Shown: positions 33,210 to 49,723, numbered from the stretch's first letter. The stretch is DNA of 64,000 nucleotides from an uncultured Ignavibacteriota bacterium (GCA_903900335.1 CAIUMP010000024.1:22774-86773), one strand, 5' to 3'. The notes: generated from the sequence alone by a model not told the origin. Numbers and translations are program-made.

Positions 33210-36200
33210 ATGCAGATCACACGTCGTTTCACCAAGGCCGGAACCAGCCCAGCAGATCAATTTCAATACACGAAGCGCGCCAGCGTGCTCCGCAATCCCG
33301 ATGGCAAGCCCATCTTCGACATGCAGGACATCGAAGTCCCGAAGCATTGGTCGCAAGTCGCCACCGATATTCTTGCGCAGAAGTATTTCCGCCGGGCGGG
33401 AGTGCCGCAGATGGATACGTTCGGCACGCCACTTCGCGATAAGGACGGCAATGTGATCGTCGGACCAGAGCGCTCGATCAAGCAGGTCGCGCATCGCCTC
33501 GCAGGTTGCTGGCGCGCATGGGGTGAAGACCACGGCTATTTCGAAACGAAGGAAGACGCGCAGGCTTTCTATGACGAGATCAGCTACATGATCCTTCGCC
33601 AAATGGCCGCACCGAACTCGCCGCAGTGGTTCAACACCGGCATCGCGTGGGCGTACGGTATCACGGGCACCGCGCAGGGACATTGGTATGTCGATCCGAA
33701 GACGGGCGAGATGACACGCTCGACGGATGCATACACCCATCCGCAGCCACACGCTTGCTTCATTCAGTCCATCAAGGACGACATGCTGAACGAAGGCGGC
33801 ATCTTCGATCTCGTCACACGCGAGGCGCGTATCTTCAAGTATGGTAGCGGTACAGGCACGAACTTCAGCTCGCTGCGTGCTGAAGGCGAGCGTGTTTCCG
33901 GTGGTGGAGCAGCATCCGGCGTGATGAGCTTCCTCAAGATCAACGACCGCGCGGCTGGTGCTGTGAAGTCGGGCGGGACGACGCGCCGCGCCGCGAAGAT
34001 GGTTATCCTCGACATCGACCATCCGGATATCGAGACGTTCATCGAGTGGAAGGCCCTCGAAGAGCAGAAGGTCGCCGCGCTCGTCGCCGGTTCGAAGATC
34101 TGCGACATCTTCCTGAACACGATCATGAAGATCGCGGCAGAAGGCGGCACAGACCGCAAGGAGAATCACGATCTCGACATCGCGATCAAGAAGGCGCTCG
34201 CTCGCGGCGTGCCGATGAACTACATCCTCCGCTGTTTGCAGATGGTCACGATGGGTTATGACCACATCGACTTCAAGACATTCGACACACACTACGAAGG
34301 CGAAGCGTATCAAACCGTTTCGGGACAGAACTCGAACAACTCCGTCCGTGTCACGAATGACTTCATGCACGCCATGATAACCGATGGCGATTGGGAATTG
34401 AAATTCCGCACGAGTGGCAAGACTGCAAAGAAGATCAAGGCGAAGAAGCTCTGGGAGAAGATCACGATGAGCGCGTGGGCCTCAGCCGATCCCGGTCTGC
34501 AATACGACACGACGATCAACGAGTGGCACACCTGCCCGGCCGACGGACGGATCAACGCGAGCAACCCATGCTCGGAGTACATGTTCTTGGACGACACGGC
34601 CTGCAATCTTGCATCGCTCAATCTCGCATACTTCTACGATGACGAGACGGGCGCGTTCAAGCTTGATGATTACAAGCACGCTGTCCGCCTCTGGACTATC
34701 GTGCTCGAAATTTCCGTGCTCATGGCGCAATTCCCATCGCGCGCGATTGCACAGGGTTCGTATGATTACCGCACGCTTGGTTTAGGTTATGCGAATCTCG
34801 GTACGATCCTCATGACGGCCGGTATCGCATACGACTCTCCCGAAGCACTCGCAATCGCGGGAGCACTCACGGCAATTCTTACTGGCGAGTCCTACGCAGC
34901 ATCCGCAGAGATGGCGAAGGACTTGGGTGCATTCCCGCGCTACGATGCGAACCGCGATGCGATGCTTCGCGTCATGCGCAACCACAAGCTTGCGGCGTAC
35001 AACGCTTCGCCGGATCGCTACGAAGGCCTCACCATCAAGCCGATGGGGATCAATCCAGAGCATTGCCCGACGGACTTGCTCGAAGCTGCGCGAGATGCGT
35101 GGGATCGCGCCAATGCGCTCGGAGAGAAGCACGGATACCGCAACGCGCAGGTAACGGTCATCGCGCCGACGGGCACGATTGGTCTCGTCATGGACTGCGA
35201 CACGACGGGCATCGAGCCGGACTTCGCCATCGTGAAGTTCAAGAAGCTCGCGGGTGGCGGATATTTCAAGATTGTTAATCAGTCCGTACACAAGGCGCTG
35301 ACGAAGCTCGGATATTCCGAAAAGGTTATCGAGGACATCGAGAAATACTCGAAGGGACACGGCACGCTCGTCGGATGTCCGGCGATCAATCGCCAGTCAC
35401 TCAAGCTCAAAGGATTCACCGACGAGAAGATCGACGACATCGAAAAGCAGTGCGATAACGTCTTCGATCTCAAGTTTGCATTCAACAAGTGGTCGCTCGG
35501 CGAGGAGTTCTGTGCGAAGCTCGGATTCACTCCGGCGCAGCTCGTCGATCCGAATTTCAACATGCTCTCCGCGCTTGGCTTCACCCGCGAGGAGATCACC
35601 AAGGCCAACGATTACATCTGCGGCACGATGACGCTCGAAGGCGCGCCAGGACTGCACGAAGAGCATCTCCCGATCTTCGACTGCGCCAACAAGTGCGGAC
35701 GCTACGGCACGCGCTACATCCCCTACGAGGCGCACATCCGCATGATGGCCGCCGCGCAGCCGTTCATCTCCGGCGCGATCTCGAAGACGATCAACATGCC
35801 GAACGAGGCCAACATCACGGACGTATCGAAAGCGTACATTGACTCCTGGAAGCTGATGCTCAAGGCCAACGCGCTCTATCGCGATGGCTCGAAGCTCTCG
35901 CAGCCGCTGAACTCCTCGAACGAAGACGCCGATCTCGCAGAGGAAGTGCTCTTCAATGATGTGGAAGACCCGGCAAACGAGACGATCGACGCGGCGATGC
36001 TGCATCAGATCGTCGAAGCGCAGAGTGGCATGACGCTCGCGCCGGAACTACGCCGTCACCGCTTGCCGCAGAAGCGCCACGGATGGCTCCGCGAGGCCGT
36101 CGTCGGCGGACACAAAGTCTATCTCCGCACCGGCGAATACGAGGACGGCCAACTCGGCGAGATCTTCATCGACATGTACAAAGAAGGCGCGTCGTTCAAG

Positions 36201-36761
36201 GGACTGATGAACTGCTTCGCTGTGCTCGCATCGAAGGCGCTGCAATACGGTGTGCCGCTCGAAGAGCTGGTCGATACGTTCACCTTCACCCGCTTCGAAC
36301 CCGCCGGAAGCGTACAGGGCCACGAAGCGATCAAGAACGCGACGAGCATTCTCGACTACGTCTTCCGCGCGCTTGGCTATGAGTATCTCGGCCGCCAGGA
36401 TTTCGTCCACGTCAAAGCCATCGACGAACCGAAGACGAACGGCCACAACGTCTCCAGCGATCATGTGCCGAGCATCGAAGTCGCGCCTGTGGCTGATGCG
36501 GTTGCGTCACAAGTCATCAGCGAGGACGACAACATTGCAAAGCTCCGTGAAGAACTCGAAGCAGAGCCGGTGATGTCCGCCGCCATTGCTGCCCCGATAG
36601 CACAGACAAACGGACATGCCACGCTCGCCACCAAGCGCGGCGAAGCCCGCGCCAAAGGCTACACCGGCGAACAATGCTCCGCCTGCGGCTCCATGCGCGT
36701 CAAGCGCAACGGCGCGTGTACGCTCTGCGATGATTGCGGGACGACGAGTGGGTGCTCGTAA
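33210..36761 (+). CDS. nrdJ: Adenosylcobalamin-dependent (class II) ribonucleoside-diphosphate/triphosphate reductase
   Basis: N-terminus [11 protein letters not shown]...[18 protein letters not shown], active-site region [28 protein letters not shown], and the C-terminal zinc-ribbon/redox tail [28 protein letters not shown]. Confidence 0.95.
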
Positions 36762-36762
36762 G
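36702..36762 (+). repeat. nrdJ-tail repeat, copy 1 (the functional 3' end of nrdJ)
   Basis: aagcgcaacggcgcgtgtacgctctgcgatgattgcgggacgacgagtgggtgctcgtaag encodes [19 protein letters not shown]. Confidence 0.95.
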
Positions 36763-37097
36763 TGATGCTGGGTTTTGACATACTGAAACTTCGTACTTGT
36801 TTCGACCGAGGGCGTGTTCGATATAGCGACCACGCTCTCGATGAAATGAAGGCGGATGAGTATGGACGAATCTGGGATGACGATGTTTTCGAGGCACTCA
36901 TGAACGGCGAGATAATCGAAGAATATGCCAGTTCCTATCCGCTACCGAGTTGCCTGGTCTTTGGCAGGACTTCGGCGGGGAGAGCAATTCACGCTCTCTT
37001 CGGTTACAATAGTGAACTCGACAGAATCGTCGTCGGGACTGTGTATCAGCCAAACCCAAGATTATGGATAGCGTACAAGAAGAGGCGAGCCAAATGA
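36762..37097 (+). CDS. DUF4258-family protein (putative toxin), cassette 1
   Basis: YSDHALDEMKADEYGRIWDDDVFEALMNGEIIEEY...CLVFGRTSAGRAIHALFGY...VGTVYQP matches the DUF4258 pattern. GTG/ATG starts at 36762/36765, immediately after the nrdJ TAA. Confidence 0.8.
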   Translation: MMLGFDILKLRTCFDRGRVRYSDHALDEMKADEYGRIWDDDVFEALMNGEIIEEYASSYPLPSCLVFGRTSAGRAIHALFGYNSELDRIVVGTVYQPNPRLWIAYKKRRAK

Positions 37098-37324
37098 AAT
37101 GCGTGATCTGCCGCGGCGATGAGATCGTGCCGCGCAGTGTCCGTGAAGAAATCCACGTCGGCGACGACATCGTCTATGTCACGGTGGATGCACTTGTCTG
37201 CACACAATGTGGTGAACGCTACTTCGACCGCTCGACCGTCCGCAAACTCGAAGGCATCGAGCGCGAATTGGAGGGCAGCCGCGAGAAGCTGCCATCCATC
37301 GGGAAGGTGTTGGTGTATGGGTAA
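37094..37324 (+). CDS. MqsA/YgiT-type zinc-ribbon antitoxin-like protein, cassette 1
   Basis: MKCVICRGDEIV...ALVCTQCGERYF carries two CxxC pairs. The ATGA overlaps the DUF4258 stop. Its stop TAA (37322-37324) is formed with the first bases of repeat copy 2. Confidence 0.8.
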   Translation: MKCVICRGDEIVPRSVREEIHVGDDIVYVTVDALVCTQCGERYFDRSTVRKLEGIERELEGSREKLPSIGKVLVYG

Positions 37325-37383
37325 GCACAACGGCGCCTGCACGCTGTGCGATGATTGCGGGACGACGAGTGGGTGCTCGTAAG
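37323..37383 (+). repeat. nrdJ-tail repeat, copy 2
   Basis: aagcacaacggcgcctgcacgctgtgcgatgattgcgggacgacgagtgggtgctcgtaag has 4 mismatches to copy 1 (3 synonymous, 1 R>H) and retains the stop codon. Confidence 0.95.
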
Positions 37384-37394
37384 GAAGATAGAGG

Positions 37395-37760
37395 ATGTTG
37401 CTGCCCTCACGCCAATTCATTCTTCGGTCGTACGTAGCTCGGAATGGAAAGAGCTACTACGACGAATGGCTGAGCACGCTTGGCGGCAACATCCGACTTA
37501 ACGTGTTAAAGAACGTTAAGAAATTGACCGTCGGGCTTGGCGATCAGAAGAACTTAGAGAACAAGCTGTGGGAATTGCGCGTCGATTTTGCTCAGGGTTA
37601 TCGCATTTATTTTTATCGCGACGGCCTCGAAATCATTTTGCTGCTGGCAGGGTCAGACAAACGCGATCAGGAAAGAACTATTAAGCTAGCTCGCAACTTT
37701 ATTAAGGAGATCGAAGAAGACAAGAAGCAAGGAACTCACTATGCCGAGCGTACCCCATGA
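37395..37760 (+). CDS. RelE/ParE-superfamily addiction-module killer protein (HigB-like), cassette 2
   Basis: YDEWLSTL...GDQKNLENKLWELRVDFAQGYRIYFYRDGLEIILLLAGSDKRDQERTIKLA matches the TIGR02683-type killer pattern. Confidence 0.8.
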   Translation: MLLPSRQFILRSYVARNGKSYYDEWLSTLGGNIRLNVLKNVKKLTVGLGDQKNLENKLWELRVDFAQGYRIYFYRDGLEIILLLAGSDKRDQERTIKLARNFIKEIEEDKKQGTHYAERTP

Positions 37761-37989
37761 CGATATTATGCGAAAGTATCTCGCCGAACCCTCCGAGGCC
37801 GAGGCGTATCTAAATATCTGCCTTGAGGACGGTAATCCCTGGCTCATTGCAGACGCTTTTCGATTAGTCGAGCAAATTCACGGTAAGAAATTGCATTTCC
37901 GAGTACGAACGGAAGCGGTTAAGCGTAGTGTACCTCTTGCGACCTTGCCAAAGGCACGACCGACGCGGACTAAGAGAGCAGTGGCATAA
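37741..37989 (+). CDS. Addiction-module antidote-like protein with no recognisable HTH region, cassette 2
   Basis: The N-terminal LAEPSEAEAYLNICLEDGNPWLIADAFRLV resembles the HigA/TIGR02684 antidote N-terminus. The C-terminal half does not look like the expected HTH. The stop TAA (37987-37989) overlaps the start of repeat copy 3. Confidence 0.5.
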   Translation: MPSVPHDDIMRKYLAEPSEAEAYLNICLEDGNPWLIADAFRLVEQIHGKKLHFRVRTEAVKRSVPLATLPKARPTRTKRAVA

Positions 37990-38040
37990 GCGCAACGGCG
38001 AGTGTACGCTGTGCGATGATTGCGGGACGACGAGTGGGTG
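37988..38040 (+). repeat. nrdJ-tail repeat, copy 3 (3'-truncated, no stop codon)
   Basis: aagcgcaacggcgagtgtacgctgtgcgatgattgcgggacgacgagtgggtg has 2 mismatches to copy 1 over 53 nt and then diverges (tagctttg instead of ctcgtaag). Confidence 0.9.
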
Positions 38041-38052
38041 TAGCTTTGAACT

Positions 38053-38316
38053 ATGGCAGAGATTAGCCGGTTTTTTGGAATTGTCATCGCGATGTATTAT
38101 CGCGAGCATGTACCGCCGCACTTTCACGCTGCGTATGGCGAGTTCACGGCACAGATTTCCATTCAAGACCTCCGGGTCATCGAAGGATACCTGCCGAAGC
38201 GGACGAAGTCATACGTGCTGGAATGGGCTGATGAGCATCGAGACGAATTGATGCAAAACTGGGTGGATATGCAAGCGAAGAAGCCGTTTACGAAAATTGA
38301 ACCGTTAGCGCCATGA
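38053..38316 (+). CDS. DUF4160-family protein, cassette 3
   Basis: MAEISRFFGIVIAMYYREHVPPHFHAAYGEF is the hallmark DUF4160 N-terminus. Confidence 0.8.
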   Translation: MAEISRFFGIVIAMYYREHVPPHFHAAYGEFTAQISIQDLRVIEGYLPKRTKSYVLEWADEHRDELMQNWVDMQAKKPFTKIEPLAP

Positions 38317-38576
38317 ACTTTGTAACCGCCGTTCGCTATGTTTCGGGCTACAAGCTCGAACTGAAGTTTAAGGATGGCCTTGAGGGCATTATCGACCTCG
38401 AAGCCGAACTGTGGGGAGAGATGTTCGAGCCGCTAAAGGACGTGGACTTCTTCAAAAAGGTGCGCGTAGATGCCGAACTCGACACCATCGTCTGGCCCAA
38501 CGGTGCCGATTTAGCGCCGGAGTTCTTGCACGAGACCGTGCTCCAATCAAACGAGCAACTGGCTGCTGCACACTAA
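38313..38576 (+). CDS. DUF2442-family protein, cassette 3
   Basis: V.YVSGYKLELKFKDG...VDAELDTIVWPNGADLAPEFL matches the DUF2442 pattern. The ATGA overlaps the DUF4160 gene. Confidence 0.8.
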   Translation: MNFVTAVRYVSGYKLELKFKDGLEGIIDLEAELWGEMFEPLKDVDFFKKVRVDAELDTIVWPNGADLAPEFLHETVLQSNEQLAAAH

Positions 38577-38580
38577 CACC

Positions 38581-38641
38581 AAGCGCAACGGCGCGTGTAC
38601 GCTGTGCGATGATTGCGGGACGACGAGCGGGTGCTCGTAAG
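38581..38641 (+). repeat. nrdJ-tail repeat, copy 4 (followed by the terminator)
   Basis: aagcgcaacggcgcgtgtacgctgtgcgatgattgcgggacgacgagcgggtgctcgtaag has 2 mismatches to copy 1, both synonymous, and retains the stop codon. Confidence 0.95.
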
Positions 38642-38665
38642 TAGCGACCTCATTAGGATAAGCAG

Positions 38666-38695
38666 AAGGCCGCCGAGAGGCGGCCTTTGATTTTT
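38666..38695 (+). terminator. Rho-independent terminator (presumed original nrdJ terminator)
   Basis: aaggccgcc (38666-38674), loop gaga, ggcggcctt (38679-38687), then tgattttt. It is the first strong terminator after the nrdJ stop. Confidence 0.8.
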
Positions 38696-38716
38696 CCAGT
38701 AGATACAAGAACAGAT

Positions 38717-40396
38717 ATGATCGACGCAGGAATAACCAACATCACACCGGAGCCAATCGAGGCGATTCTTGAGGACAAGCGAACGTATTACGTCCCATAT
38801 TTTCAACGAGAGTACTCGTGGAAGCTCGATGACTGGAGAGCATTGTTAGAAGATGTGGAGCAAATCCGCACAACCGGCGAGCCGCACTTCTTCGGCTTTA
38901 TGACTTTTCGACCAGACGGGGAAAGCAAAGTCCAGATTATCGAGGGGCAGCAACGACTCTCGACCATCACGATTCTACTTGCAGTAATTCGTGACATATT
39001 GAATAGCATTGGTGATCCAGATTGGGGAGAGTTGGACCGGTACATTAACAAACGACCTGGATTCAAAACGGGAGAGCCCGCTCAACCCAAGTTGAGATTA
39101 TCCGCACTAAACACCGACTTTTTCGCACGTTTCGTGCAAACGGTCGCCGCCCCAGAAGAAAAGATCAAGGCAAATCGAAAGCAGAAGTTAAGCCTTTCGG
39201 ATCAGCTTCTTCTAGGAGCCTATAAATACTACTATGAAACACTTAAGGCACAGCTGGACACTTTAACAGGCCATGTTAGAAATGAGTATCTCTCGTCCCT
39301 GATTAAGAGCTGTACCGAGAAGCTGATAGTTATCACGATGAATGTCACCGATGAACTAGCGGCCTACAATGTGTTTCAAACAATCAATGGTCGCGGGCTC
39401 GATCTGACCCTTACGGACTTATTAAAAATTCACCTCTTTGAAAAGTCTGGTAAATCCAACACCGAGCGGGCCGTCGAGCTTTGGGAGGATATGAGAGAGA
39501 CTCTCAGTGGAATCAATACAAACTCTTTCCTGCGGCATCTTTGGCTCTCAACCCGCGGACTGATTCAGGAACAGAAGCTCTTGGGAGAGGTGAAAGGCTC
39601 GATCAAGACTAGCGCCCAAGCTTTAACCTTCCTTGAGGAGCTCAAAGTTGAAGCGGAAGTTTACGAGGCGTTACTCAATCCGACTTCGGAATACTGGGCT
39701 GACGACCAAATACCAGTTCTCCTTGGCGAATTGCAAATACTGTCGACGCAACAACCTCTGCCGCTGCTCCTTGCTGGTGCGCGCAAGTTTCAGTCCTCTG
39801 AATTTAAGAAGCTTCTTAGGATTTGCATTGCATTTGTTTTTAGGTATCAGACAATCGGCGAACTAGAAAACAAGGAGATGGAAAGAGCCTTTAGTAATAT
39901 CGCACTTGAGATTAGGAAGGGCTCACTTGAAAATACTAAAGGGATTGCACAGAGGCTAGCGCCTCTTTATCCCGCCGACAGTGTATTCCTCGCAAATCTG
40001 AAGGAGAAAACGGTTAAGTCGCGGCAGGTGGCAAAGTACATCCTGCGGTCCATCGAGAACAGCTTGAGCGGTGAACAGGAAAAGACTGCTACCACAATGA
40101 CGCTCGAACACATTCTCCCAATAAGCCCCGATGAAGAGTGGAAGAAGTACCTTGCGCAAAACAAGCTTCAGAGGGATGAGCTTGTCTATCGGCTCGGCAA
40201 TTATACCTTGCTGACGCGAAAAGTAAATAAATCGGCACAAAATCGTTTCTTTGAACACAAGCGCGATGAATGGTACAAACAGTCGGATTTAGCTATTAAC
40301 AGTGACCTTAAGAAGATGAAGTCTTGGACCGACAGCGATATTTCAAATCGCCAGAATTGGCTTGCGGAGAAAGCCATTAAGCTGTGGAAGATTTGA
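38717..40396 (+). CDS. DUF262/DUF1524 nuclease (GmrSD-type type IV restriction enzyme / SspE-like)
   Basis: DUF262 motifs YFQREYSWK and IIEGQQRLSTI. C-terminal DUF1524/His-Me-like motifs TLEHILP and LGNYTLLTRKVNKSAQN. ATG at 38717; the ORF track begins at 38687, inside the terminator. Confidence 0.85.
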   Translation: MIDAGITNITPEPIEAILEDKRTYYVPYFQREYSWKLDDWRALLEDVEQIRTTGEPHFFGFMTFRPDGESKVQIIEGQQRLSTITILLAVIRDILNSIGDPDWGELDRYINKRPGFKTGEPAQPKLRLSALNTDFFARFVQTVAAPEEKIKANRKQKLSLSDQLLLGAYKYYYETLKAQLDTLTGHVRNEYLSSLIKSCTEKLIVITMNVTDELAAYNVFQTINGRGLDLTLTDLLKIHLFEKSGKSNTERAVELWEDMRETLSGINTNSFLRHLWLSTRGLIQEQKLLGEVKGSIKTSAQALTFLEELKVEAEVYEALLNPTSEYWADDQIPVLLGELQILSTQQPLPLLLAGARKFQSSEFKKLLRICIAFVFRYQTIGELENKEMERAFSNIALEIRKGSLENTKGIAQRLAPLYPADSVFLANLKEKTVKSRQVAKYILRSIENSLSGEQEKTATTMTLEHILPISPDEEWKKYLAQNKLQRDELVYRLGNYTLLTRKVNKSAQNRFFEHKRDEWYKQSDLAINSDLKKMKSWTDSDISNRQNWLAEKAIKLWKI

Positions 40397-40445
40397 GCAG
40401 CACGGCTCGCGTCGTCGCGCCAATGTATATTCTGTCGTGACCAAA

Positions 40446-40590
40446 GACCGCCACTTTTGTTTCCCCAGACTCCCTGCTTCAGCGTACATTCCCGCCGCGC
40501 GGCAGTCTCTCTCACTCTCTCTCCAGCGGCGGCGGAGAGAGCGTGTGTGGGGGTGCGACCGCCGTGCGTCATGCCGTAGGGTTCTCGGGT
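40446..40590 (+). repeat. ~145-nt dispersed repeat, copy A1
   Basis: Alignable along its length with 41711-41858. The shared core is gcgtacattcccgccgcgcggcagtctctctc...gagagcgtgtgtg.gggtgcgaccgccgtgcgtcatgccgta.ggttct.gggt. It contains an internal hairpin: ctctctcc/ggagagag (40517-40541). Confidence 0.85.
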
Positions 40591-40640
40591 CGGCGTACAT
40601 TCCCCGCCGCGCGGCACGACGGAACGGTGCAGCTAATCTG

Positions 40641-41261
40641 TTAGGGCTGTAGCTTCCATCCCTCTTTCTTGTAAATTTTTTGCAGTTGGCGATCTACCCG
40701 TTTGTCATGGATGTGGTCATCATAGACGGTATAACCACAGTCAACGGCGGTGAAATTGGGTTTGATCTTGTAGAACTTCATATAGTCTGTACCAGACATG
40801 ACATAGGAACCAATGATGTTATTCACCGAGTCGTATGACGGTGCCCCGCTGGCGCTTTTGATCTCCTCGAAGCCGCGGACTCGGTGTACCGAATGCGATG
40901 CTGTATCGACAATGTATAGATAAAATTGATGGTTGCTCCGCACATCTGACAGATGGAAGAGCACGAGATCCCGAATGCCGTCGCCGCTATAATCAATGCT
41001 CTGGACAAGATCGCCGCCATCGGGCCCAGTTACCGAAAGAGAGTCGTGATACATCAATCGCTTGCCTTTGAAGAGCATGAACGCAGCATTCTTGCGGTCG
41101 TCATCGTCATATTGACCGTCCTCGTTATCGATGACGAAGCGTGCAACGTAGTTCGTATCCGTGAAGAGATGAATGGTTGTATCGAAGTAGGGTCGCTTCT
41201 GAGCGTGGGAAGATGTAACATAGAAGACACACATGAATATCGCGAAAAGAAATCGGCACAT
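40641..41261 (-). CDS. Secreted hypothetical protein
   Basis: Signal peptide MCRFLFAIFMCVFYVTSSHAQ; 206 aa; DYSGDGIRDLV resembles an FG-GAP/VCBS-type Ca-binding loop. Confidence 0.55.
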   Translation of the reverse strand: MCRFLFAIFMCVFYVTSSHAQKRPYFDTTIHLFTDTNYVARFVIDNEDGQYDDDDRKNAAFMLFKGKRLMYHDSLSVTGPDGGDLVQSIDYSGDGIRDLVLFHLSDVRSNHQFYLYIVDTASHSVHRVRGFEEIKSASGAPSYDSVNNIIGSYVMSGTDYMKFYKIKPNFTAVDCGYTVYDDHIHDKRVDRQLQKIYKKEGWKLQP

Positions 41262-41330
41262 AAATCGGCTCCTGACTTTTTTGTGGATTAGAAAGGAAAC
41301 ATTTTCATCTCTTTATGAATCCCTCTGAAT

Positions 41331-41420
41331 GTCCGCCGTGCGTCATGCCGTAGGGTTCTTGGGTTGGCGGACATGTCGGGCGGGGACGCCCGACCCATTC
41401 GGCAAGCTCAGGGCAGGCTC
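41331..41420 (+). repeat. Composite small repeats: a short A-family copy (41331-41372) plus a 'ggcaagctcagggcaggctc' element (41375-41420)
   Basis: gtccgccgtgcgtcatgccgtagggttcttgggttggcggac shares its core with A1/A2. The following gtcgggcggggacgcccgacccattcggcaagctcagggcaggctc is nearly identical to 51973-52017. Confidence 0.8.
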
Positions 41421-41432
41421 TACGCGAACGCC

Positions 41433-41681
41433 TTACTTCCTCAACATCTTCTCGGTCGCATCGTCATGGTACGTCTTCGGTCCATCCGAGCTAAACTGCC
41501 ATTCACTTCGCACCTCATCGAATCGGAGTGGCAGCACCTCGAACTCGTGCTTTGCGAGCAGCGTATTTGCGCGGTGCCGGAAGAGCTTGTGCGTCATCCG
41601 CTTGTCCCACTTGTCGGAATCTCTCCTGCGCTTAGCTACCGCGAAGTATGGCCTTCTCTTTATCGATCTGCTCATGCACAA
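41433..41681 (-). CDS. Hypothetical basic small protein (coding status doubtful)
   Basis: 82-aa Arg/Lys-rich ORF between repeat elements, with no motif I recognise. Confidence 0.25.
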   Translation of the reverse strand: MCMSRSIKRRPYFAVAKRRRDSDKWDKRMTHKLFRHRANTLLAKHEFEVLPLRFDEVRSEWQFSSDGPKTYHDDATEKMLRK

Positions 41682-41710
41682 TTAACAGAGCGACATTGTG
41701 CGTGGTTCTT

Positions 41711-41858
41711 GTCCGCCACTCCTGTTTCCCCGCCACCATGCTCCAGCGTACATTCCCGCCGCGCGGCAGTCTCTCTCTCACTCTCTCGCCAGCGGTGGTG
41801 GATAGAGAGCGTGTGTGTGGGTGCGACCGCCGTGCGTCATGCCGTAAGGTTCTAGGGT
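41711..41858 (+). repeat. ~145-nt dispersed repeat, copy A2
   Basis: Direct-orientation homolog of 40446-40590, with scattered mismatches and small indels. Confidence 0.85.
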
Positions 41859-41874
41859 GAGCGGACAATGTGTT

Positions 41875-41973
41875 GAACGCGTAGGTCGGTGCCTCCGGCC
41901 CGACTTCCCCGGGATTGCAACACGATTGTGGTTGCCCCACCAAGTCGGGCCGGAGGCACCGACCTACGCGTTC
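41875..41973. repeat. Perfect 32-bp inverted repeat with a 35-nt loop (99-nt hairpin element)
   Basis: gaacgcgtaggtcggtgcctccggcccgactt (41875-41906) is the exact reverse complement of aagtcgggccggaggcaccgacctacgcgttc (41942-41973). The loop contains a smaller gcaac/gttgc hairpin. Confidence 0.9.
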
Positions 41974-42009
41974 AGGGAATCGCTTTAATCCGCCGTTGTT
42001 TCCATTTGC

Positions 42010-42762
42010 ATGACACACCCTGAAACACTCCTACTCAAAAAAGGCGGCGTACTACAGACCAAACGCTACAGCCGCGGTGCGTGGCGCACAAAGGACCTTA
42101 CCAAGGTTGCATTTCGCTGTCTTTATGAGGAGTGCTCACTCGCCGAGGACGTAACGTTGCGCGATGTCTTCCTCTTGCTCAACAAGAACCTGAAGATGTT
42201 CGACCTGATCCTCGGATGTTGGTGCAAGGAGGTCGTGACCGCAGGTCTGAGCAAGCGACATAAACGAAACCTCAAAACGGACGACATTGATTATCTCGAA
42301 CTCTACTACCACATCGTTCGCGATGAGTATCCTAAGGATGACAAGCGGACGTATGGTCTTCGCTTCCCGGAATTTCATGGAGTTGGCAAGTTGAAGAAGG
42401 ATAGCGAGGACGGCCACGGCAAGAAGGGCGAGACTATCCAGTGGGGCGTGTCTCTTTCCGAGCCATGGAAGCTTGCACCGCTTCCGCTCAAGCTGAATAA
42501 CGAAGGAAAGGTCTTTCTCGAAAAGCGAAAGTCATCGGAGGTTATTACCACGCTCCCGAATCCTGTCTATACGCTCGGCAATATCCTTCAAGGGATTATG
42601 TGGGAGTTATCCTGGCATGGCTCGCCAGAGCAGGTGCAGAAGTTCGCGGCTGAACTCCATCGCAGGGTTGAAGAAGTAGAGAGCGGCAAAGCAAAGCTCG
42701 TACAGTTCGATCCGAAGAAGTTGTTGAAGGAGGTTAAAGCCAGCAAGGGAAAGAAGAAATAG
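42010..42762 (+). CDS. Hypothetical protein, Lys-rich C-terminus
   Basis: 250-aa ORF beginning 37 nt after the hairpin element. No recognisable domain. Confidence 0.55.
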   Translation: MTHPETLLLKKGGVLQTKRYSRGAWRTKDLTKVAFRCLYEECSLAEDVTLRDVFLLLNKNLKMFDLILGCWCKEVVTAGLSKRHKRNLKTDDIDYLELYYHIVRDEYPKDDKRTYGLRFPEFHGVGKLKKDSEDGHGKKGETIQWGVSLSEPWKLAPLPLKLNNEGKVFLEKRKSSEVITTLPNPVYTLGNILQGIMWELSWHGSPEQVQKFAAELHRRVEEVESGKAKLVQFDPKKLLKEVKASKGKKK

Positions 42763-42790
42763 ATACCGGCCCGCAGGGTGTCCTGCGTGT

Positions 42791-43000
42791 TCACTCCAGA
42801 TTATTCAAGTCTGCCCTCAGCTCCTGCATCGTCTTCAGGCCAAAGTATTTTCGTGGATTGCCGCACATCCAGCAGGAGCAGGACGCAAGGTGATCGGCGT
42901 ACTTCTCCGGGTTCTCGCACCACGGAAAAAACCTACGAGCGCGCTCCTTTTGCCTGCGCAAATCTGCCCGCCGTTTCGCTCTGATCGTGGACTTCAGCAT
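42791..43000 (-). CDS. Small basic Cys-motif protein (phage-like), function unknown
   Basis: 69 aa; the SCSCWMCGNPRKYFG motif resembles small phage/prophage proteins I have seen, but I cannot name a family. Confidence 0.45.
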   Translation of the reverse strand: MLKSTIRAKRRADLRRQKERARRFFPWCENPEKYADHLASCSCWMCGNPRKYFGLKTMQELRADLNNLE

Positions 43001-43109
43001 ACGATAACAACTCGCACTGGTACGTTTTGTTACACCAATTCATTGCGGCAATGGATTACATAAGATTCCTGGACTTCGCCGCTCTCGTTCTGTGTTTACA
43101 ATAACAGCT

Positions 43110-43595
43110 ATGAACCTCTTCCTCCCGTACCCCACCGATCTCTCCGCCACTGCCCGCTTCTTAGATGATGGACGGCTGAATAAGCAGGTCGTCGAGGCGT
43201 ATCAGGTTGGGCGTGTCGTGCTCCGACGGATGCTGGAGCCGGATGCGAAGATCGGGTGGAAGAATCATCCGTCTTCGCTGCTCATCTATAATGAGGGGCG
43301 TCCAAAGTTTCCGTGGCTGCAAACGTATATCGAGACGCTGGATGAGGAGTGGCGGTTTCGGGGTTTCAATCGGTCGGCGGACTTCACGTCGAAGATAGAA
43401 GCCCTGTTTGTGGAGGCGGACGGACTGCGAGAGTTGCATTCAGATGAGCCGGTCTGCGCGTTTCTTGGCAATGGCGAGCTTGTTCAAGGAGATTCTGCAC
43501 TGATTGGGAAGCTATACCGTGAATATTTGAACAATAAGTTTGAGTCCCAAGTGAGGCCACCTCGATGGACGGGCCGGGATCGTCCGGTTGTGTGA
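43110..43595 (+). CDS. Hypothetical protein; weak resemblance to pyrimidine-dimer DNA glycosylase-like family N-termini
   Basis: MNLFLPYPTDLSATARFLDDGRLNKQVVEAYQV. The resemblance is weak and motif-level only. The ORF track begins at 43092 (GTG). Confidence 0.5.
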   Translation: MNLFLPYPTDLSATARFLDDGRLNKQVVEAYQVGRVVLRRMLEPDAKIGWKNHPSSLLIYNEGRPKFPWLQTYIETLDEEWRFRGFNRSADFTSKIEALFVEADGLRELHSDEPVCAFLGNGELVQGDSALIGKLYREYLNNKFESQVRPPRWTGRDRPVV

Positions 43596-43680
43596 TCGCA
43601 GTAGCTTTCTCTTGCGATGTGAGTTGGCATGATAAAGGAAGCAACTCGTCGGCATAGGATCACACTAATCATTTAACACT

Positions 43681-43833
43681 ATGCCGACCGAGAAGACCAT
43701 TACGAGAGAAGTCACGACCGAAACGCAGGCACCCGTCAGCGAGACGAAGACGACAACGGTGACCCGCACGGAGACCAAGCCAGAGCCAAAGCCCCGCATT
43801 ATCGAAGAAACGATCGTAGTAGAAGAAGGCTGA
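43681..43833 (+). CDS. Possible 50-aa Thr/Glu/Lys-rich micro-protein
   Basis: Not in the ORF track (<60 aa). Reads MPTEKTITREVTTETQAPVSETKTTTVTRTETKPEPKPRIIEETIVVEEG. Its TGA directly abuts the GTG start of the next gene. Confidence 0.25.
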   Translation: MPTEKTITREVTTETQAPVSETKTTTVTRTETKPEPKPRIIEETIVVEEG

Positions 43834-46461
43834 GTGCATATTTCGACTCGCCGGAAGTTTCTTGTTGGCTTTACCACGCTTTTCCTCATACTCGCACTCG
43901 CGGTGTGGGGTTTCTTTGTATTCTATTTCGATAGCGTATTTAGTACTGTTGCCAGCGAGAAGCTAAGCTCCGCCGTAAACATTGCCACTTCCGGCAGGTA
44001 TCAACTTGCACTCCGTCGGATTTCGTATTCGCACGGGGTGGTCGTCGCACGGGGAGTTGAGCTGACCCGCATTGGTTACCATGTGGATGAGCGCGGAGTC
44101 GCTGTGCGCAACGTTTCGATAGACTCGGTACGGCTGGAAGGTGTGGACTTGTGGGATGTTGCGCTAGGTCACCCGCTTAGCTTTTCTAAATTGCTCGTCA
44201 ACGATCCGAAGGTCTATTCCTTTCGGATCGAAGAGGAGCGTTCGCACTTGACACTCTTGCCCAACGGCACGACGCCCGCACACGCCTCAAGCACACCCAG
44301 CATCTCGATCGAGAGCGCTATCGTTTCTAATGCTCAACTGTTTCGCACTTCAGTACACGGAGACATGCTTTCAGGCGTGGCCTCTGCGTCATCTCGACAC
44401 GTTTGCCTTGATGGGAAAGCGCCATCTCCTTTTACATTCAAACAACTCACACTTGCGATACCGCAGCTCGATTTGCCAGACTCGGGCGAATTGACTGCGC
44501 TGCATGTTAGAAACCTGGTAGCCAATTCCGAAGACTCCATTCTTACGATTGATACTATTAGCTACGCACCAACCATGAGGGAGGGCGCATACACCAATGC
44601 GCGCGCTGTGGGCTTGCGGAGCGAAGGCATTGATTTCGCGCTGCTGATGCGTGGCAAGGGAATAGCGGTTCGGACGCTTGCGGCTCGTTCTTGGAACTTG
44701 GAGCAGCAGTCGGGCAAGACATCATCGAAGGATACGAGCACAAAGCATACCTTCACCCAGGATGATCTTGCTAAGCTCATTCCGATCTCAATATCGGTTG
44801 GTAGGCTCGATTTGCCAAATGGTGATCTGTCTCTAATAGCAGAGAAGGGCTCTCCGGTGCTCGTAAGGGACATCGGGTTGCATATTGAAGATATTCATAT
44901 TGCTCCCAATCTCCCGTCGAGCGACCCGCTATTCTCTAAACAGATTACCATTGCCATTCCGCAACTCCGTTATCCAACGGATGGAGCGACTGCTGATGTC
45001 ACCGGTTTTCATATCAACGTGCGCGATAGTCTTGTCACCGTCCGCACGATACGCTACCCGAAGGATGGTACGACGTACGGTATCAAGGCTCTACGCGCCG
45101 AAGGAATTGATTTTAACAGGCTGCTCAACGGCAAGGGCATTGCTCTTGCGGTATTGAAATCAGGATCATGGTCGATCGAGAAGCGGACGGATGAGGGCCA
45201 CGCGAAGCGCGTTGCTGCGAAAAAGACCTTGACCCACAGTTCAAGCACCCAAGCTGTTTCGATACCAATTCAGGTCGGGCGAATCGAATTGCCGCACGGG
45301 ACCATTAAGCTAGAAACAATTGCGGCGGATAGCGCCCGTACCGCATCCGTACTTTCGATCAAGGGAGTGAGTGTGGGTGCTTGGCAATTCAATCTTGATC
45401 CCACGTCGCTCAAACATCAACCCCCACTCTTTTCGCAGCAGGTGAAGTTGAAGGTGCCGAGCGTGAGCATAGTTGATAGCGATGGCTTTTACGCTGTGCA
45501 GATGCGTAACATGCAAGTGAATCTTCGCGATTCGCTCGTGACGATCGACAGCGTGGGATATCTTCCGCAATTCTCTGACAGTGAGTACACTGCTCGTCAC
45601 CCACATCCCTTGGGGAGCACGGCGGTGCAAAGTATTGGGCTACGAGCGGAGGGGATAGACTTCGCCGGGATATTCGCTGGTCACGGCATCAAGGTTCGGC
45701 GCGTGTCGTCACCAGATTGGTGGGTAAGCTATTTCATGGATTGGCGCAGACCAGCGGACAACAACCTGCTGGATGTTCCCTTGCCGCACGATATGGTGCG
45801 CACGATACGATACCCGATCACCATCAACCAGTTCGCTTTGGAGAACGGCCATGTTCTCTTCCGTGAACGCGCAGTAAATAGTGTGAAACCGGGAGTTCTC
45901 ACCTTCTCGAATGTGAAGATTATATCCACTCCGTTCACTACGGATACAACGAACGGACTGTACCATGCGCCCATGCGCTTTAATCTCCACGCCCTGTCTA
46001 TCGACGAAGCAACTCTTGCCGCGACCGCAAGCTATGCGCTCACGGATACCGGCTTTGATCTTTCGCTCGACGGTGCGGTGGGTCCCTTCTCGGCAAAGCG
46101 ACTGAATACGTGGCTCATCTCCAACGAGCGTCTAGAAGCGTTAGACGGCGCACTCGATACGGGGATCATTAAGATAAGAATTCAGTCCAGCGTTGCAACG
46201 ACCACGGTTACTCCCTTCTATCACGATCTTTCTCTGGAAGTGCTTGCCCCGCTATACACGGATTCCACCGGAATTGTGCAGGATGTTCAAACACTGTTTG
46301 CGAAGTCTTTTGTAATTCGGAGCAACAATCGTGAGACGAATGGCGAAGCGGTGAAATCAGCAACCACCACACTCACTCGGAGCAAGGATGAGTACCTGTT
46401 CCAATTTATCTGGCTTAGTCTGAGAAAATCTATTGGTGGCGTGATCGGTGGATTTGAATAG
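43834..46461 (+). CDS. Membrane-anchored large protein with three internal repeats (AsmA/DUF748-like architecture)
   Basis: N-terminal TM helix FLVGFTTLFLILALAVWGFFVF. Three repeats of ..(I/V)AIPQL..P..G......N.RDSLVT(I/V)..I.Y.P.....G(L/I)RAEGIDF..L..GKGIA... Confidence 0.7.
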   Translation: MHISTRRKFLVGFTTLFLILALAVWGFFVFYFDSVFSTVASEKLSSAVNIATSGRYQLALRRISYSHGVVVARGVELTRIGYHVDERGVAVRNVSIDSVRLEGVDLWDVALGHPLSFSKLLVNDPKVYSFRIEEERSHLTLLPNGTTPAHASSTPSISIESAIVSNAQLFRTSVHGDMLSGVASASSRHVCLDGKAPSPFTFKQLTLAIPQLDLPDSGELTALHVRNLVANSEDSILTIDTISYAPTMREGAYTNARAVGLRSEGIDFALLMRGKGIAVRTLAARSWNLEQQSGKTSSKDTSTKHTFTQDDLAKLIPISISVGRLDLPNGDLSLIAEKGSPVLVRDIGLHIEDIHIAPNLPSSDPLFSKQITIAIPQLRYPTDGATADVTGFHINVRDSLVTVRTIRYPKDGTTYGIKALRAEGIDFNRLLNGKGIALAVLKSGSWSIEKRTDEGHAKRVAAKKTLTHSSSTQAVSIPIQVGRIELPHGTIKLETIAADSARTASVLSIKGVSVGAWQFNLDPTSLKHQPPLFSQQVKLKVPSVSIVDSDGFYAVQMRNMQVNLRDSLVTIDSVGYLPQFSDSEYTARHPHPLGSTAVQSIGLRAEGIDFAGIFAGHGIKVRRVSSPDWWVSYFMDWRRPADNNLLDVPLPHDMVRTIRYPITINQFALENGHVLFRERAVNSVKPGVLTFSNVKIISTPFTTDTTNGLYHAPMRFNLHALSIDEATLAATASYALTDTGFDLSLDGAVGPFSAKRLNTWLISNERLEALDGALDTGIIKIRIQSSVATTTVTPFYHDLSLEVLAPLYTDSTGIVQDVQTLFAKSFVIRSNNRETNGEAVKSATTTLTRSKDEYLFQFIWLSLRKSIGGVIGGFE

Positions 46462-46697
46462 GTGCCACGTCTCAGCGACCGTGCTCTCGCTTCCTCCTCT
46501 TTCTTTGGCTCTCCGACTGTGTGCACTTTCGCACGGTTATTACGTTCTGTTCCGATGGGAACAAGACGAAGCTCGCAATGCGTAGTAGTTTCCCAAGCTC
46601 AGCGGAACTGGATCATGTCGTTTAGGACTCTCACGCGACCGCAGGCGAAAATCGGACGCCAACAAGTCTTGACGATCAGTTAACAAATAGATAACAA

Positions 46698-47498
46698 GTG
46701 GCACTCATTGTAAAGGATCAGGGACACCTATCGGTTCGAAAGGTCGCAGAGGTAACGGTCGCCTTTTGGGTGATGAAGATCTGCGCGACAACACTGGGCG
46801 AAACCGCCGGCGATCTGCTCTCAATGACGATGAACGTCGGATACGGAACAAGCTCGCTCATTTTGATCGGGCTGTTTTTCGTTACGGTTATCTGGCAGGT
46901 GCTGTCGAAGCGGTATCATCCGGTGCTCTACTGGCTGGTCATCTTATCGACGAGCACTGCGGGGACGACGATGTCCGATTACATGGACAGAACGCTTGGA
47001 TTGGGATATACAACTGGGTCAGTCCTACTCGTCACGTTGCTCATGGTGATTCTCGCATTGTGGCGTTGGAGTGTTGGCTCACTCTCCGTGGAGAACATCT
47101 CGAAGCCACGAACGGAAATATTCTACTGGACGGCGATCCTCTTCTCGAACACATTAGGCACTGCACTCGGCGATTTCCTTGCAGATAGCTCCGGACTTGG
47201 ATTCTTTGGCGGTGCAATCCTTATTGGCTCCGTCCTCGCGCTTGTAGTAGCAGCGCACTACTGGACGAAGATCTCATCTATTCTCTTATTCTGGATCGCG
47301 TTCATTCTCACCCGTCCCTTCGGGGCAACGTTTGGTGATCTATTGACGAAATCCACGGCGAAGGGCGGATTGGATTTTGGGACGATCGGTTCGTCGGCGA
47401 TCCTCGCGGGGATTCTTGCCATACTCATTACGGTTGCACTCGTCAAGGAGCGACGCGAGTGGAAGGCATTATCCGATGCTACCGTTGCCAAACTTTAG
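46698..47498 (+). CDS. Polytopic membrane protein (COG4705-like)
   Basis: Eight or so hydrophobic segments and a repeated GET.GD / LGTALGD motif. Confidence 0.7.
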   Translation: MALIVKDQGHLSVRKVAEVTVAFWVMKICATTLGETAGDLLSMTMNVGYGTSSLILIGLFFVTVIWQVLSKRYHPVLYWLVILSTSTAGTTMSDYMDRTLGLGYTTGSVLLVTLLMVILALWRWSVGSLSVENISKPRTEIFYWTAILFSNTLGTALGDFLADSSGLGFFGGAILIGSVLALVVAAHYWTKISSILLFWIAFILTRPFGATFGDLLTKSTAKGGLDFGTIGSSAILAGILAILITVALVKERREWKALSDATVAKL

Positions 47499-47540
47499 TA
47501 ATCTCACTCAGACCGGATTACATCGATTCACAGATCATTT

Positions 47541-48203
47541 ATGAAGCTCAACGTCATCGTTACAGGTGTGACCGGAATGGTTGGTGAAGGTGTGTTACAC
47601 GAATGCTTACAGCACCCGGATGTGGAGAGCGCCCTTGTCCTAACGCGCAGACCGAGCGGTGTGACTCATCCAAAGTTGAAAGAGATCATCGTTAAGGACT
47701 TCTACGATCTCTCGGCGCTGGAAGCGCGGGTTAGCGGATACAATGCCTGCTTCTTCTGCCTTGGTGTTTCCTCTGTCGGGAAGAAGGAAGAGGAGTATCG
47801 TCGCCTGACGTATGACCTGACCATGAGCGTTGCCAGAACGCTATCGAAGGTGAACACAGACATGACCTTCTGCTACATCTCCGGTGCCGGAACAGACAGC
47901 TCCGAGAAGGGCCGCATCATGTGGGCGCGGGTGAAGGGGAAGACGGAAAATGATCTGATGAAGCTGCCGTTCAAGCAAGTCTTCGCGTTTCGTCCGGGGA
48001 TCATCGAGCCGACGAAGGGAATGAAGAACACCATCAAGTACTACAAGTATGTGATGTGGCTGCTTCCGATCCTTCGAGTCGTGACACCTAACATGATCTC
48101 ATCTCTGCGAGAGATCGGGCTGGCGATGATCCACGTCAGCACTCGAGGGTTTGCAAAACAGCATTTGGAGGTGAAGGATATTATTGCGGCGGCGAAGGAA
48201 TAA
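47541..48203 (+). CDS. NAD(P)H-binding atypical SDR/epimerase-family protein
   Basis: VIVTGVTGMVGEGV Rossmann motif; 220 aa. Confidence 0.8.
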   Translation: MKLNVIVTGVTGMVGEGVLHECLQHPDVESALVLTRRPSGVTHPKLKEIIVKDFYDLSALEARVSGYNACFFCLGVSSVGKKEEEYRRLTYDLTMSVARTLSKVNTDMTFCYISGAGTDSSEKGRIMWARVKGKTENDLMKLPFKQVFAFRPGIIEPTKGMKNTIKYYKYVMWLLPILRVVTPNMISSLREIGLAMIHVSTRGFAKQHLEVKDIIAAAKE

Positions 48204-48354
48204 CACCATGAAACGTGCGTGTCTCTTCTTACTACTGCTCGTCTGTGCAGGTGCTTCCAGCCCGGCGGCCCGCGCTGGTGGCAACCGATACCAATTGCCG
48301 GCCATCACAAATGTGCGTATATTGCAGCTTATGTGATAGGCACCAATCCTCCTC

Positions 48355-48652
48355 ATGAACAAACTCTACTTCGGGGACAACCTTTACATCCTCCGAGACC
48401 ACATCCCCTCGGAGAGCGTCGATCTCATCTATCTCGATCCGCCGTTTAATTCGAAGCGGGATTACTCCGTGCTCTTCAAGACGCCCAAGGGGCATGAGAG
48501 CGACGCGCAGATCACCGCATTCGAGGACTCCTGGCATTGGGGTCCACAAGCCGAGCGGGAGTTCGACGAGTTGCAGCATCAGCCGAATACCGATGTGGCC
48601 GAGATGATCATCGCGCTACACGGGTTCCTCGGAAAGAACGTCATGATGGCCA
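48355..48652 (+). pseudogene. N-terminal fragment of a site-specific DNA methyltransferase (N6A/N4C type)
   Basis: MNKLYFGDNLYILRDH..SVDLIYLDPPFNS (DPPF motif) ...FEDSWHWG...ALHGFLGKNVMMA. The family sequence then breaks off and is replaced by REP/RAYT sequence. The catalytic-domain remainder is missing. Confidence 0.7.
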
Positions 48653-48686
48653 GTGCGAATAGTCGCGGAGCGACGAACTACCCGCA

Positions 48687-48736
48687 GCCCAGGGTGGAGC
48701 AAGCATCGCCCACGATGCGCAGCGGAACCCTGGGTT
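48687..48736 (-). repeat. REP-like hairpin, left flank of the RAYT gene (inverted relative to 49288-49320)
   Basis: gcccagggtg...gcgcagcggaaccctgggtt. The ends are the reverse complement of aacccagggttccgctgcgc...caccctgggc. Confidence 0.8.
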
Positions 48737-48786
48737 AGGGTAACCGTTTACGATAGGAAGTCCTGAAAGGACGGAGTACCCCACAC

Positions 48787-49248: not shown

Positions 49249-49287
49249 CTTCGCCCTTTCAGGGCTTATTGCTTTCTACTACCATTC

Positions 49288-49320
49288 AACCCAGGGTTCC
49301 GCTGCGCTACACCCTGGGCT
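49288..49320 (+). repeat. REP-like hairpin, right flank of the RAYT gene
   Basis: aacccagggttccgctgcgctacaccctgggct is self-complementary (cccaggg/ccctggg). It is followed by tacatcgtccctttggga. Confidence 0.8.
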
Positions 49321-49351
49321 GCGAGTACATCGTCCCTTTGGGACTAAGGTT

Positions 49352-49693: not shown

Positions 49694-49723
49694 CCTTACA
49701 TAAAATTTAACCAAATTAAGCGT

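Follow-up and report, generated by a model that had tools for sequence, protein, structure and literature searches.

How three unrelated operons of the toxin-antitoxin (TA) type came to lie in series behind an essential gene, each followed by a copy of that gene's own 3' end, is the question raised by a 64,000-nucleotide (nt) stretch of DNA from an uncultured Ignavibacteriota bacterium (GCA_903900335.1 CAIUMP010000024.1:22774-86773), which we analyzed at its full length and refer to as the window. The gene is nrdJ, encoding a class II ribonucleotide reductase (RNR), and its tail, the last 19 codons and the stop, recurs three times downstream. We propose that the nrdJ 3' end is a recurrent landing site and that homologous recombination anchored in the tail explains the arrays found there, a proposal to which we give about even weight. 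We favor homologous recombination over an unlinked site-specific recombinase on a matter that we regard as unsettled.

The nrdJ gene of the window (1183 amino acids [aa]) is full length with a conserved tail. It has the N-terminal and barrel domains of class II RNRs by Pfam and a cysteine-rich tail with a terminal cysteine pair, and the zinc-ribbon-like CxxC...CxxC arrangement of this tail (CSAC...) is kept in 79/79 relatives in which the nrdJ end is present. We take the tail to have the redox role generally ascribed to it in the RNR family. The first-pass annotation of this DNA reported four direct copies of a 61-nt string from the end of nrdJ, with 4, 2, and 2 mismatches in the displaced copies, and this proved exact to the base:

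33210..36761, + strand: nrdJ, B12-dependent RNR; open reading frame (ORF) with Pfam Ribonuc_red_2_N, Ribonuc_red_lgC (E=5e-131), and TSCPD.
36702..36762, + strand: tail copy 1, functional; the 19 final codons with the stop and one further base; the reference string.
37323..37383, + strand: tail copy 2, displaced; 4 mismatches, including a nonsynonymous change (R to H).
37988..38048, + strand: tail copy 3, displaced; 2 mismatches in the first 53 nt (to 38040), then divergent.
38581..38641, + strand: tail copy 4, displaced; 2 synonymous mismatches.
38665..38698, + strand: intrinsic-terminator-like hairpin of 10 pairs (7 G-C; site called at 38665-38688), then a T run.

The last 8 nt of copy 3, TGTAGCTTTG, are a decayed AGC-serine form of the tail end from which the stop codon has been lost. 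A 23-nt core, TGCGATGATTGCGGGACGACGAG, occurs exactly 4 times in the 64 kb against 0 expected (100 shuffles). The hairpin behind copy 4 had been singled out as the sole strong terminator of the array, and between 36.7 and 38.7 kb the + strand indeed has no other terminator-like site.

Each interval between copies holds one overlapping two-gene pair on the + strand, and Pfam and NCBIfam uphold the earlier identification of these pairs as DUF4258/YgiT, RelE/ParE plus partner, and DUF4160/DUF2442:

36762..37097, + strand: cassette 1, toxin candidate DUF4258, 111 aa (Pfam PF14076, E=1e-16).
37094..37324, + strand: cassette 1, antitoxin candidate, YgiT/MqsA-type zinc ribbon, 76 aa (NCBIfam TIGR03831, 38.7 bits, cut-off 20.2).
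37395..37760, + strand: cassette 2, predicted toxin of the RelE/ParE family (HigB/Gp49-like), 121 aa (NCBIfam TIGR02683, 71.6 bits, cut-off 62.85; weak Pfam Gp49 match).
37741..37989, + strand: cassette 2, antitoxin candidate, 82 aa; no family match.
38053..38316, + strand: cassette 3, toxin candidate DUF4160 (DhiT-like), 87 aa (Pfam PF13711, E=7.5e-22).
38313..38576, + strand: cassette 3, antitoxin candidate DUF2442 (DhiA-like), 87 aa (Pfam PF10387, E=8.8e-14).

All three pairs consist of small, overlapping, same-strand genes, and each pair has matches to known toxin or antitoxin families, as type II TA modules do, and from family membership we infer that they are such modules. The DUF4160 and DUF2442 proteins also match DhiT (with 89 bits) and DhiA (weakly) in NCBIfam, both below the equivalog cut-offs; such a DhiT/DhiA system has been reported from Dickeya (PMC8198452). 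The TAA stops of the first two antitoxin genes are made of a T and the first two A's of the following repeat, the stop of cassette 1 overlapping the start of tail copy 2 and that of cassette 2 the start of copy 3. The G+C content of the cassettes (49-53%, against 58.5% in nrdJ) is consistent with an accessory, foreign origin. The cassettes have no terminator of their own and are probably read through from nrdJ.

This array is not an artefact of one assembly, because independent contigs from two other samples (L086 and L088) contain copies 2-4; they are colinear with window positions 36962-40150 and 36962-38687, respectively, at 99.9% identity. The window itself lies in a 122-kb ENA contig, and the repeats, at 61 nt, fall short of the final k-mer length that the contig names suggest for the assembler (k141). 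The assemblies of both other samples break within the DUF4258 gene, away from the repeats, the nrdJ contig running to 36978 and the array contig beginning at 36962; this break could reflect population heterogeneity or a coverage problem.

Tail copies recur in relatives. We examined 80 genome loci and, with a degenerate tail pattern, at least 120 metagenome loci (cited here by L numbers; L008 is PLYO01000041.1, L009 is CAWBEI010000002.1, L015 is CAVTNP010000001.1, and L022 is OY969726.1), and sought further copies by a peptide-motif scan and by comparing every locus with its own tail in a short-word BLAST; flanks extend to at most 10 kb, many contigs are short, and the frequencies are rough. 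The closest nrdJ relatives belong to metagenome-assembled genomes labelled Candidatus Kapaibacterium, Ignavibacteriota, or Bacteroidota. In this Candidatus Kapaibacterium-like host clade, ~35-45% of the nrdJ loci listed have at least one displaced tail copy of 22-129 nt. A second copy, full or partial, lies 0.1-1.4 kb downstream of nrdJ in 6/17 GTDB clade loci (L006, L007, L009, L011, L013, and L014), the 17 being those whose tail reads ...RNGACT[VL]C[DE]DCGTTSGCS. The suggestion that tandem copies be sought in metagenomes was also rewarded, both in contigs of the same clade (among those listed, L091, L092, L096, L146, L156 [=L182], L176, L199, and L205) and in a second, AT-richer clade (L119 and L134). 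Other nrdJ clades gave no second copy in ~150 loci listed, save one 22-nt remnant. This remnant of a tail end lies 57 nt behind the nrdJ stop in an unrelated GC-rich lineage (L181 [=L124], 6895-7010), and it suggests that tail replacement may extend beyond the Kapaibacteria.

The cargo between copies in these relatives is small and co-oriented with nrdJ, and its families recur in varied order:

PIN_3 plus partner: L009, L146, L156.
HigB-like plus partner: L011, L022, L091, L210, L211.
ParE/RelE plus Phd-like partner: L092, L205, L091, L109.
DhiT/DhiA-like pair: L096, L103, L156, L176, L006, L210.
DUF4258/YgiT: L176.
Unassigned gene pair: L013, L014, L092.
Non-TA cargo: two glyoxalases, one membrane protein, and dnaN (L199).

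Cassette number, content, and order all vary among relatives, and the array is not the fixed, invariant one that the first-pass annotation had named as the contrary outcome. The window's DUF4258 protein has an ortholog at the same place in L176 (61% aa identity), its YgiT-type partner is 87% identical in aa to an L176 protein, and homologs of the cassette 2 toxin lie directly behind the nrdJ tail in L022, L091, L011, L210, and L211, with homologs of the cassette 2 partner behind the toxin in L022 (84%), L011, and L091. Another homolog of this toxin lies away from nrdJ in an ordinary context (L212), so the family is not restricted to the nrdJ site. Nor is the process limited to TA cargo, since in L199 (390-1502) a full-length dnaN with three beta-clamp Pfam domains stands between two 129-nt copies of the nrdJ tail.

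Homologs of the glyoxalase/VOC gene of L210 (1327-1704, 125 aa) number more than 2000, share 79-96% identity with it, and stand in widely differing surroundings (L215 and L216 among them), one of them in a record named Thermoplasmata archaeon; DNA homology stops exactly at the ORF ends, as if the gene were a widely travelling gene-sized unit. Tracing this gene in search of an L211-type layout was uninformative: the close homologs numbered more than 2000, their contexts were unrelated, and their homology was limited to the ORF.

In which order, then, did the units of the window arrive? An empty site had been predicted in which the nrdJ stop would be followed directly by the terminator, and L008 provides it: only 28 nt separate its nrdJ stop from a terminator homologous to the one behind window copy 4. 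Copy 4 and the sequence downstream of it are homologous both to the tail and terminator of L008 and to the second tail and terminator of L009, in which a PIN cassette has been placed ahead of them. Copy 4 is thus probably the oldest tail, still attached to its original terminator. A DhiT/DhiA-type cassette occupies the last position in the window, L176, L096, L006, L210, and L156, and L176 has counterparts of window cassettes 1 and 3, arranged alike and 67-73% identical in DNA, cassette 2 not being present. These orders fit a history in which the DhiTA cassette beside the original tail is old, later units having been added ahead of it and some lost from time to time. The earlier proposal that insertion was serial, with older tails displaced downstream, draws support from the order of the arrays, from L008, and from L009.

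The tails themselves carry the mark of foreign ends. Window copy 3 ends in ...GGGTGTAGCTTTGAACTATGG, and the functional tail of L096, which stands before a DhiT cassette, ends in ...GGGTGCAGCTAAACGATTATGCC; the two have in common an AGC-serine version of the tail end plus spacer, whereas the working tail of the window uses TCG. By this match, copy 3 is the fossil of an end that nrdJ formerly had, linked to the DhiT cassette behind it. L007 has a working tail that is recoded at almost all synonymous sites and is only 66% identical to the locus's own displaced copy, 11 nt away, while that displaced, native copy is 100% identical to the working tail of another genome. The AGC fossil and the recoded L007 tail bear out the prediction that each unit supplies a replacement tail end of its own. 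The two copies in L013 diverge unevenly, at 1/50 positions on the left and at 9/34 on the right, a contrast that is the expected pattern of a crossover inside the tail. The PIN cassettes of L009 and L156 are both preceded by TGTAGCTAACAT.TAAATG. A target-site-duplication model was rejected, tail copies within one array differing in serine-codon type and at up to 26% of positions (L013 and L007).

All three displaced copies of the window are nearest to the window's own tail when compared with 42 other clade tails, sharing for example its GAT-GAT codons, a sign either that the copies have converted one another or that they arose locally. The latter could be pressed further, to tandem duplication of the nrdJ end in place, with later divergence, or to an assembly artefact, with no horizontal input at all, given that the four window copies resemble each other more than they do any other genome's tail. 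We find this scarcely credible: the three cassettes belong to unrelated gene families, the tail end in copy 3 is of another serine-codon type, the three assemblies, each of a different sample, concur, and relatives hold other cargo at the site while one is empty.

Under tail-anchored homologous recombination, incoming foreign DNA that bears a small operon in the orientation of nrdJ, together with a short homolog of the nrdJ tail, would recombine with the resident tail. After the event nrdJ would end with the newcomer's last codons, and the former tail, together with all behind it, would be pushed downstream as a noncoding direct repeat. The window array would represent three such events, the DhiT/DhiA-type cassette beside the original tail and terminator being the oldest. 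Joining could occur through a crossover of the RecA type within the conserved tail, or through a homologous anchor on one side and an illegitimate joint at the far end. The invariant tail peptide keeps tens of identical bases across distant nrdJ genes, and these would be the source of homology. Once in place, the repeats would recombine among themselves, with gene conversion, deletion, and reshuffling as the outcome. Cargo between direct repeats of 60-130 nt would be easily deleted, and mostly addiction modules, whose loss is penalized, would survive; the cassettes may thus be mostly TA because modules that resist deletion between repeats are what remain. The persistence of TA cassettes in chromosomal integrons has likewise been argued from penalized loss.

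Several features of the loci point to homology-driven events of this kind. Repeat length varies from 22 to 129 nt among loci, tails have been replaced with no cargo (L007 and L181), some arrays retain no tail copy (L210 and L022), and copies evolve in concert. The glyoxalase gene is preceded by a HigB-like unit in L210 and followed by that unit in L211, on contigs that are 97-98% identical; on this evidence the rearrangement is recent, L211 being a 1-kb contig only. The first-pass view of a site-specific process, and of a dedicated capture system, drew no support from the loci: the variable repeats, the cargo-less replacements, the concerted copies, and the finding of no linked recombinase in ~2 Mb fit homology-driven recombination at least as well.

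Several points weigh against homologous recombination. Nearly the same left boundary, which falls between a T and AAGCGCAACGG with the upstream TAA lying on it, recurs with many unrelated cassettes, at window copies 2 and 3 and in L096, L151, L156, and L091; such a shared boundary makes random illegitimate joints unlikely, and a fixed crossover site would give it. The units are, like integron cassettes, very compact, only 7-30 nt separating the tail stop from the toxin start. Cassettes with unrelated cargo have at their 3' ends a conserved GC-rich module of 45 nt. In model bacteria, ~25-60 nt of imperfect identity support recombination only inefficiently. Finally, our recombinase search covered the flanks described above by Pfam summaries and a regular expression, and an unlinked enzyme is possible.

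Such an enzyme, encoded elsewhere or on a visiting element, might use the nrdJ tail or its core as an attachment (att) site and move TA mini-circles in trans; integron cassettes, cis-mobilizable elements (CIMEs) mobilized by ICEs (integrative and conjugative elements), and Xer-dependent modules would be the models. We consider this possible and somewhat doubtful. It would account for repeats that are all direct and for units that are compact single operons co-oriented with nrdJ, for a left boundary near AAGCGCAACGG repeated in cassettes of unrelated cargo, for a cassette order that varies between near-identical strains (L210 and L211), and for the conserved 45-nt module at cassette 3' ends. 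It would also make sense of the retention, in nearly all displaced copies, of the last 30-35 nt, which hold a small inverted repeat (ACGAG-N6-CTCGT), and of the GCGC-AACG-GCGC contained in the left end. The idea is at odds with the wide variation in repeat length and in the extent of identity, with the cargo-less replacements, and with a series of searches for its agents.

The first of these concerned the enzyme. No recombinase was found by Pfam among 20 window ORFs of suitable size or by a six-frame motif scan of the whole 64-kb window, in keeping with the first-pass statement that no integrase is visible there. Among the 65 ORFs downstream of nrdJ in clade loci, Pfam gave no recombinase in the 25 of 63 families listed, and a six-frame regular-expression scan of 2.07 Mb of loci gave one recombinase match only, in an unrelated locus; no tyrosine or serine recombinase was thus seen in the ~2 Mb around the relatives' nrdJ genes. 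Nor did the ~190 loci listed contain a larger integrase-bearing element at the site, or any tail copy more than ~1.4 kb from the previous copy.

The second concerned the site. A phage-borne attP was sought by running two degenerate tail patterns against viral contigs, which returned one phage nrdJ and two chance matches and no isolated tail fragment. An attC-like structure was rejected after single-stranded DNA folds of the four copies on both strands scored no better than shuffles (z from +0.5 to -2.2), the only local stems being two of 4-6 bp, and the 45-nt module showed no covariation. For attC R boxes (RYYYAAC/GTTRRRY), the left-end GCGCAAC has no GTTGCGC partner at the right end. Inspection of the repeat gave no dif-like 11-6-11 AT-rich palindrome, the sequence test being a weak one. 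An RNA gene as the real target was likewise dismissed, with 0 Rfam matches in the 64 kb and 0 tRNA or tmRNA genes by ARAGORN. A self-BLAST search of the window and all loci, set to direct repeats spaced 150-2500 nt, revealed no gene-tail array besides that of nrdJ; it also returned intergenic repeat elements and paralogous gene starts.

The tandem accretion of recombinase-less, att-flanked units at the 3' end of a target gene is already known from CIMEs, as exemplified by the ICESt1/ICESt3-related elements at fda in Streptococcus thermophilus and by tRNA-gene islands (PMC5704250). Like a CIME, an nrdJ unit brings no recombinase of its own, restores the gene on arrival, and shifts older units downstream into arrays; direct repeats containing the 3' end of the target gene flank the units, and nrdJ is intact. 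It could accordingly be asked whether the units are remnants of larger integrative elements (islands, prophages, or IMEs [integrative and mobilizable elements]) that decayed to att sites and TA genes, as classical CIMEs would be. There is a documented route to tandem att-flanked units of this kind (PMC5704250), TA modules are typical survivors of such decay, and the region downstream is a variable defence island. We judge this origin improbable. Classical CIMEs are decayed ICEs or IMEs of several kilobases with an integrase-bearing relative at the same site; nrdJ units, in contrast, are single operons of 0.5-0.7 kb with repeats of 22-129 nt. None of more than 25 units (0/>25) has an integrase fragment or other island remnant, all are 0.5-1.4 kb and gene-dense from tail to tail, no intact element occupies the site in the ~190 loci listed, and two near-empty tail replacements cannot be island remnants. 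Descent from, or mobilization by, an ICE, IME, or prophage at the same site found no support in those loci, in the 2.07 Mb with flanks of at most 10 kb, or in the viral contigs.

Chromosomal integron arrays and CALINs (clusters of attC sites lacking integron-integrases) are compact and rich in TA modules, which stabilize them, with mostly single-operon, apparently promoterless cassettes read from one upstream promoter and bounded by a repeated site. The nrdJ arrays resemble them in their compact, co-oriented, TA-rich cassettes, each bounded by a repeated site, and have no terminator before copy 4; they are unlike integrons in that no intI was found and in that the nrdJ site is protein-coding, with near-identical copies and no paired R boxes. 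The pdif modules of Acinetobacter plasmids are bounded by 28-bp XerC/XerD sites in alternating orientation, and integrative mobile elements exploiting Xer (IMEX) use the housekeeping enzyme. Here, too, small modules, many of them TA, are bounded by copies of a short site and bring no recombinase; the nrdJ repeats differ from pdif sites in being all direct and, on inspection, in showing no 11-6-11 dif-like layout. The orphan toxin-immunity modules of rhs and cdiA loci are thought to enter by homologous recombination in a conserved piece of the gene, displacing the old 3' end. They are alike in that every displaced module is preceded by a further copy of a short, conserved part of the main gene, and unlike in that the variable part there is the gene's own C-terminal toxin domain, whereas nrdJ has an invariant C terminus and separate TA operons.

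Homology-facilitated illegitimate recombination and transformation merodiploids show that one anchor can yield partial duplications with no enzyme of an element (PMC3240628 and PMC3784515). Those are laboratory events at arbitrary loci, unlike the arrays described here. We know of no natural, recurrent multicassette array on one gene tail that has been attributed to homology-facilitated recombination. A full-text literature search found no description of the nrdJ tail as such a site or of TA arrays on it. The first-pass claim of no known precedent therefore stands for the nrdJ-tail site, on which no paper was found, and falls for the logic of tandem accretion, already described for CIMEs (PMC5704250).

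A further view, which we offer tentatively, is that the addiction modules form a true cassette pool with the nrdJ coding tail as a portable attachment site, served by host recombination or by an unlinked recombinase, and with the palindromes described below as part of the mechanism, as scars or in silencing. A working replacement tail would then allow harmless entry into any nrdJ of the clade, expression from the nrdJ promoter, and exchange between cells.

Should tail-anchored recombination be the correct account, selfish TA operons, and occasionally other genes, would build integron-like arrays without an integron, riding on an unchangeable stretch of an essential gene that offers a site common to distant hosts and always expressed. 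It would bear on how gene-sized cassettes originate and spread outside integrons, on why TA modules cluster at certain chromosomal spots, and on how far plain homologous recombination can mimic site-specific capture, and it would offer a specific locus for testing, in an uncultured lineage that is widespread in soil and freshwater. A warning for annotators also follows, namely that short ORFs downstream of nrdJ that end in the tail peptide are displaced gene ends and not genes.

Two kinds of GC-rich sequence accompany the displaced tails. Perfect or near-perfect palindromes with the core CCGCCGCGGCGG overwrite cysteine-codon stretches, almost only in displaced nrdJ tails; 4/5 occurrences of the 12-mer in 2.06 Mb of loci lie within such tails. 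In L007 (9365-9378), TCCGCCGCGGCGGAC stands in place of CAATGC, with the frame kept and QC changed to SAAAD, and in L199 (1613-1628), TCCGCCCGTGGCGGGC stands in place of GCCTGC, again in frame, changing AC to PPVAG. In L091 (reverse strand, ~4309-4322), L096 (reverse strand, second tail), and L151 (51-62), CCGCCGCGGCGG replaces GATT at the same position in three contexts.

The 45-nt module, CCCGCGAAACGAACGCGGAGGGCGGCG, occurs only at cassette 3' ends just ahead of a displaced tail (L009, 10060; L091, 4255 and 4837, oriented; L156, 1886; L210, 1285; L211, 941) and is absent from the window's own cassettes. In translation it gives unrelated antitoxins a basic extension, RRAPAKRTRRAAA, at the C terminus, and behind a Phd-like gene it is noncoding. 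As a structured site it was rejected: it folds as a hairpin, with no compensatory changes in 7 sequences. The module starts like nrdJ GGTTACACCGGCG, and for this reason may be the remodelled left part of an old displaced tail.

The region behind the array (window 38687-51577) looks like a defence island, with a GmrSD gene, a Pyr_excise-domain gene, several large unassigned genes, and an AAA_15 ATPase. Its first gene is as follows:

38687..40396, + strand: GmrSD-type restriction endonuclease (Pfam GmrSD_N and GmrSD_C).

At this position relatives have AIPR, SLFN/AlbA_2, TIR, EcoRI methylase, or RmuC genes. Within the island, a structured repeat of 150-250 nt with CT-rich and GA-rich inverted segments is present at 40448-40633 and 41713-41974 (~87% identical, no Rfam match); the two copies flank an unassigned 206-aa gene on the - strand, with part of a third copy at 41310-41373. 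Behind the second copy comes a perfect 33-nt inverted repeat (41874-41906 and 41942-41974). Farther on, a 46-nt hairpin repeat (AACCCAGGGTT...ACCCTGGG) at 49288-49333 and 51710-51755 brackets the AAA_15 ATPase gene (49724-51577), and the same element family occurs in the opposite orientation in or beside nrdJ cassettes of L011 (~9430-9470) and L022 (~10000-10040); it may be a small mobile palindromic element.

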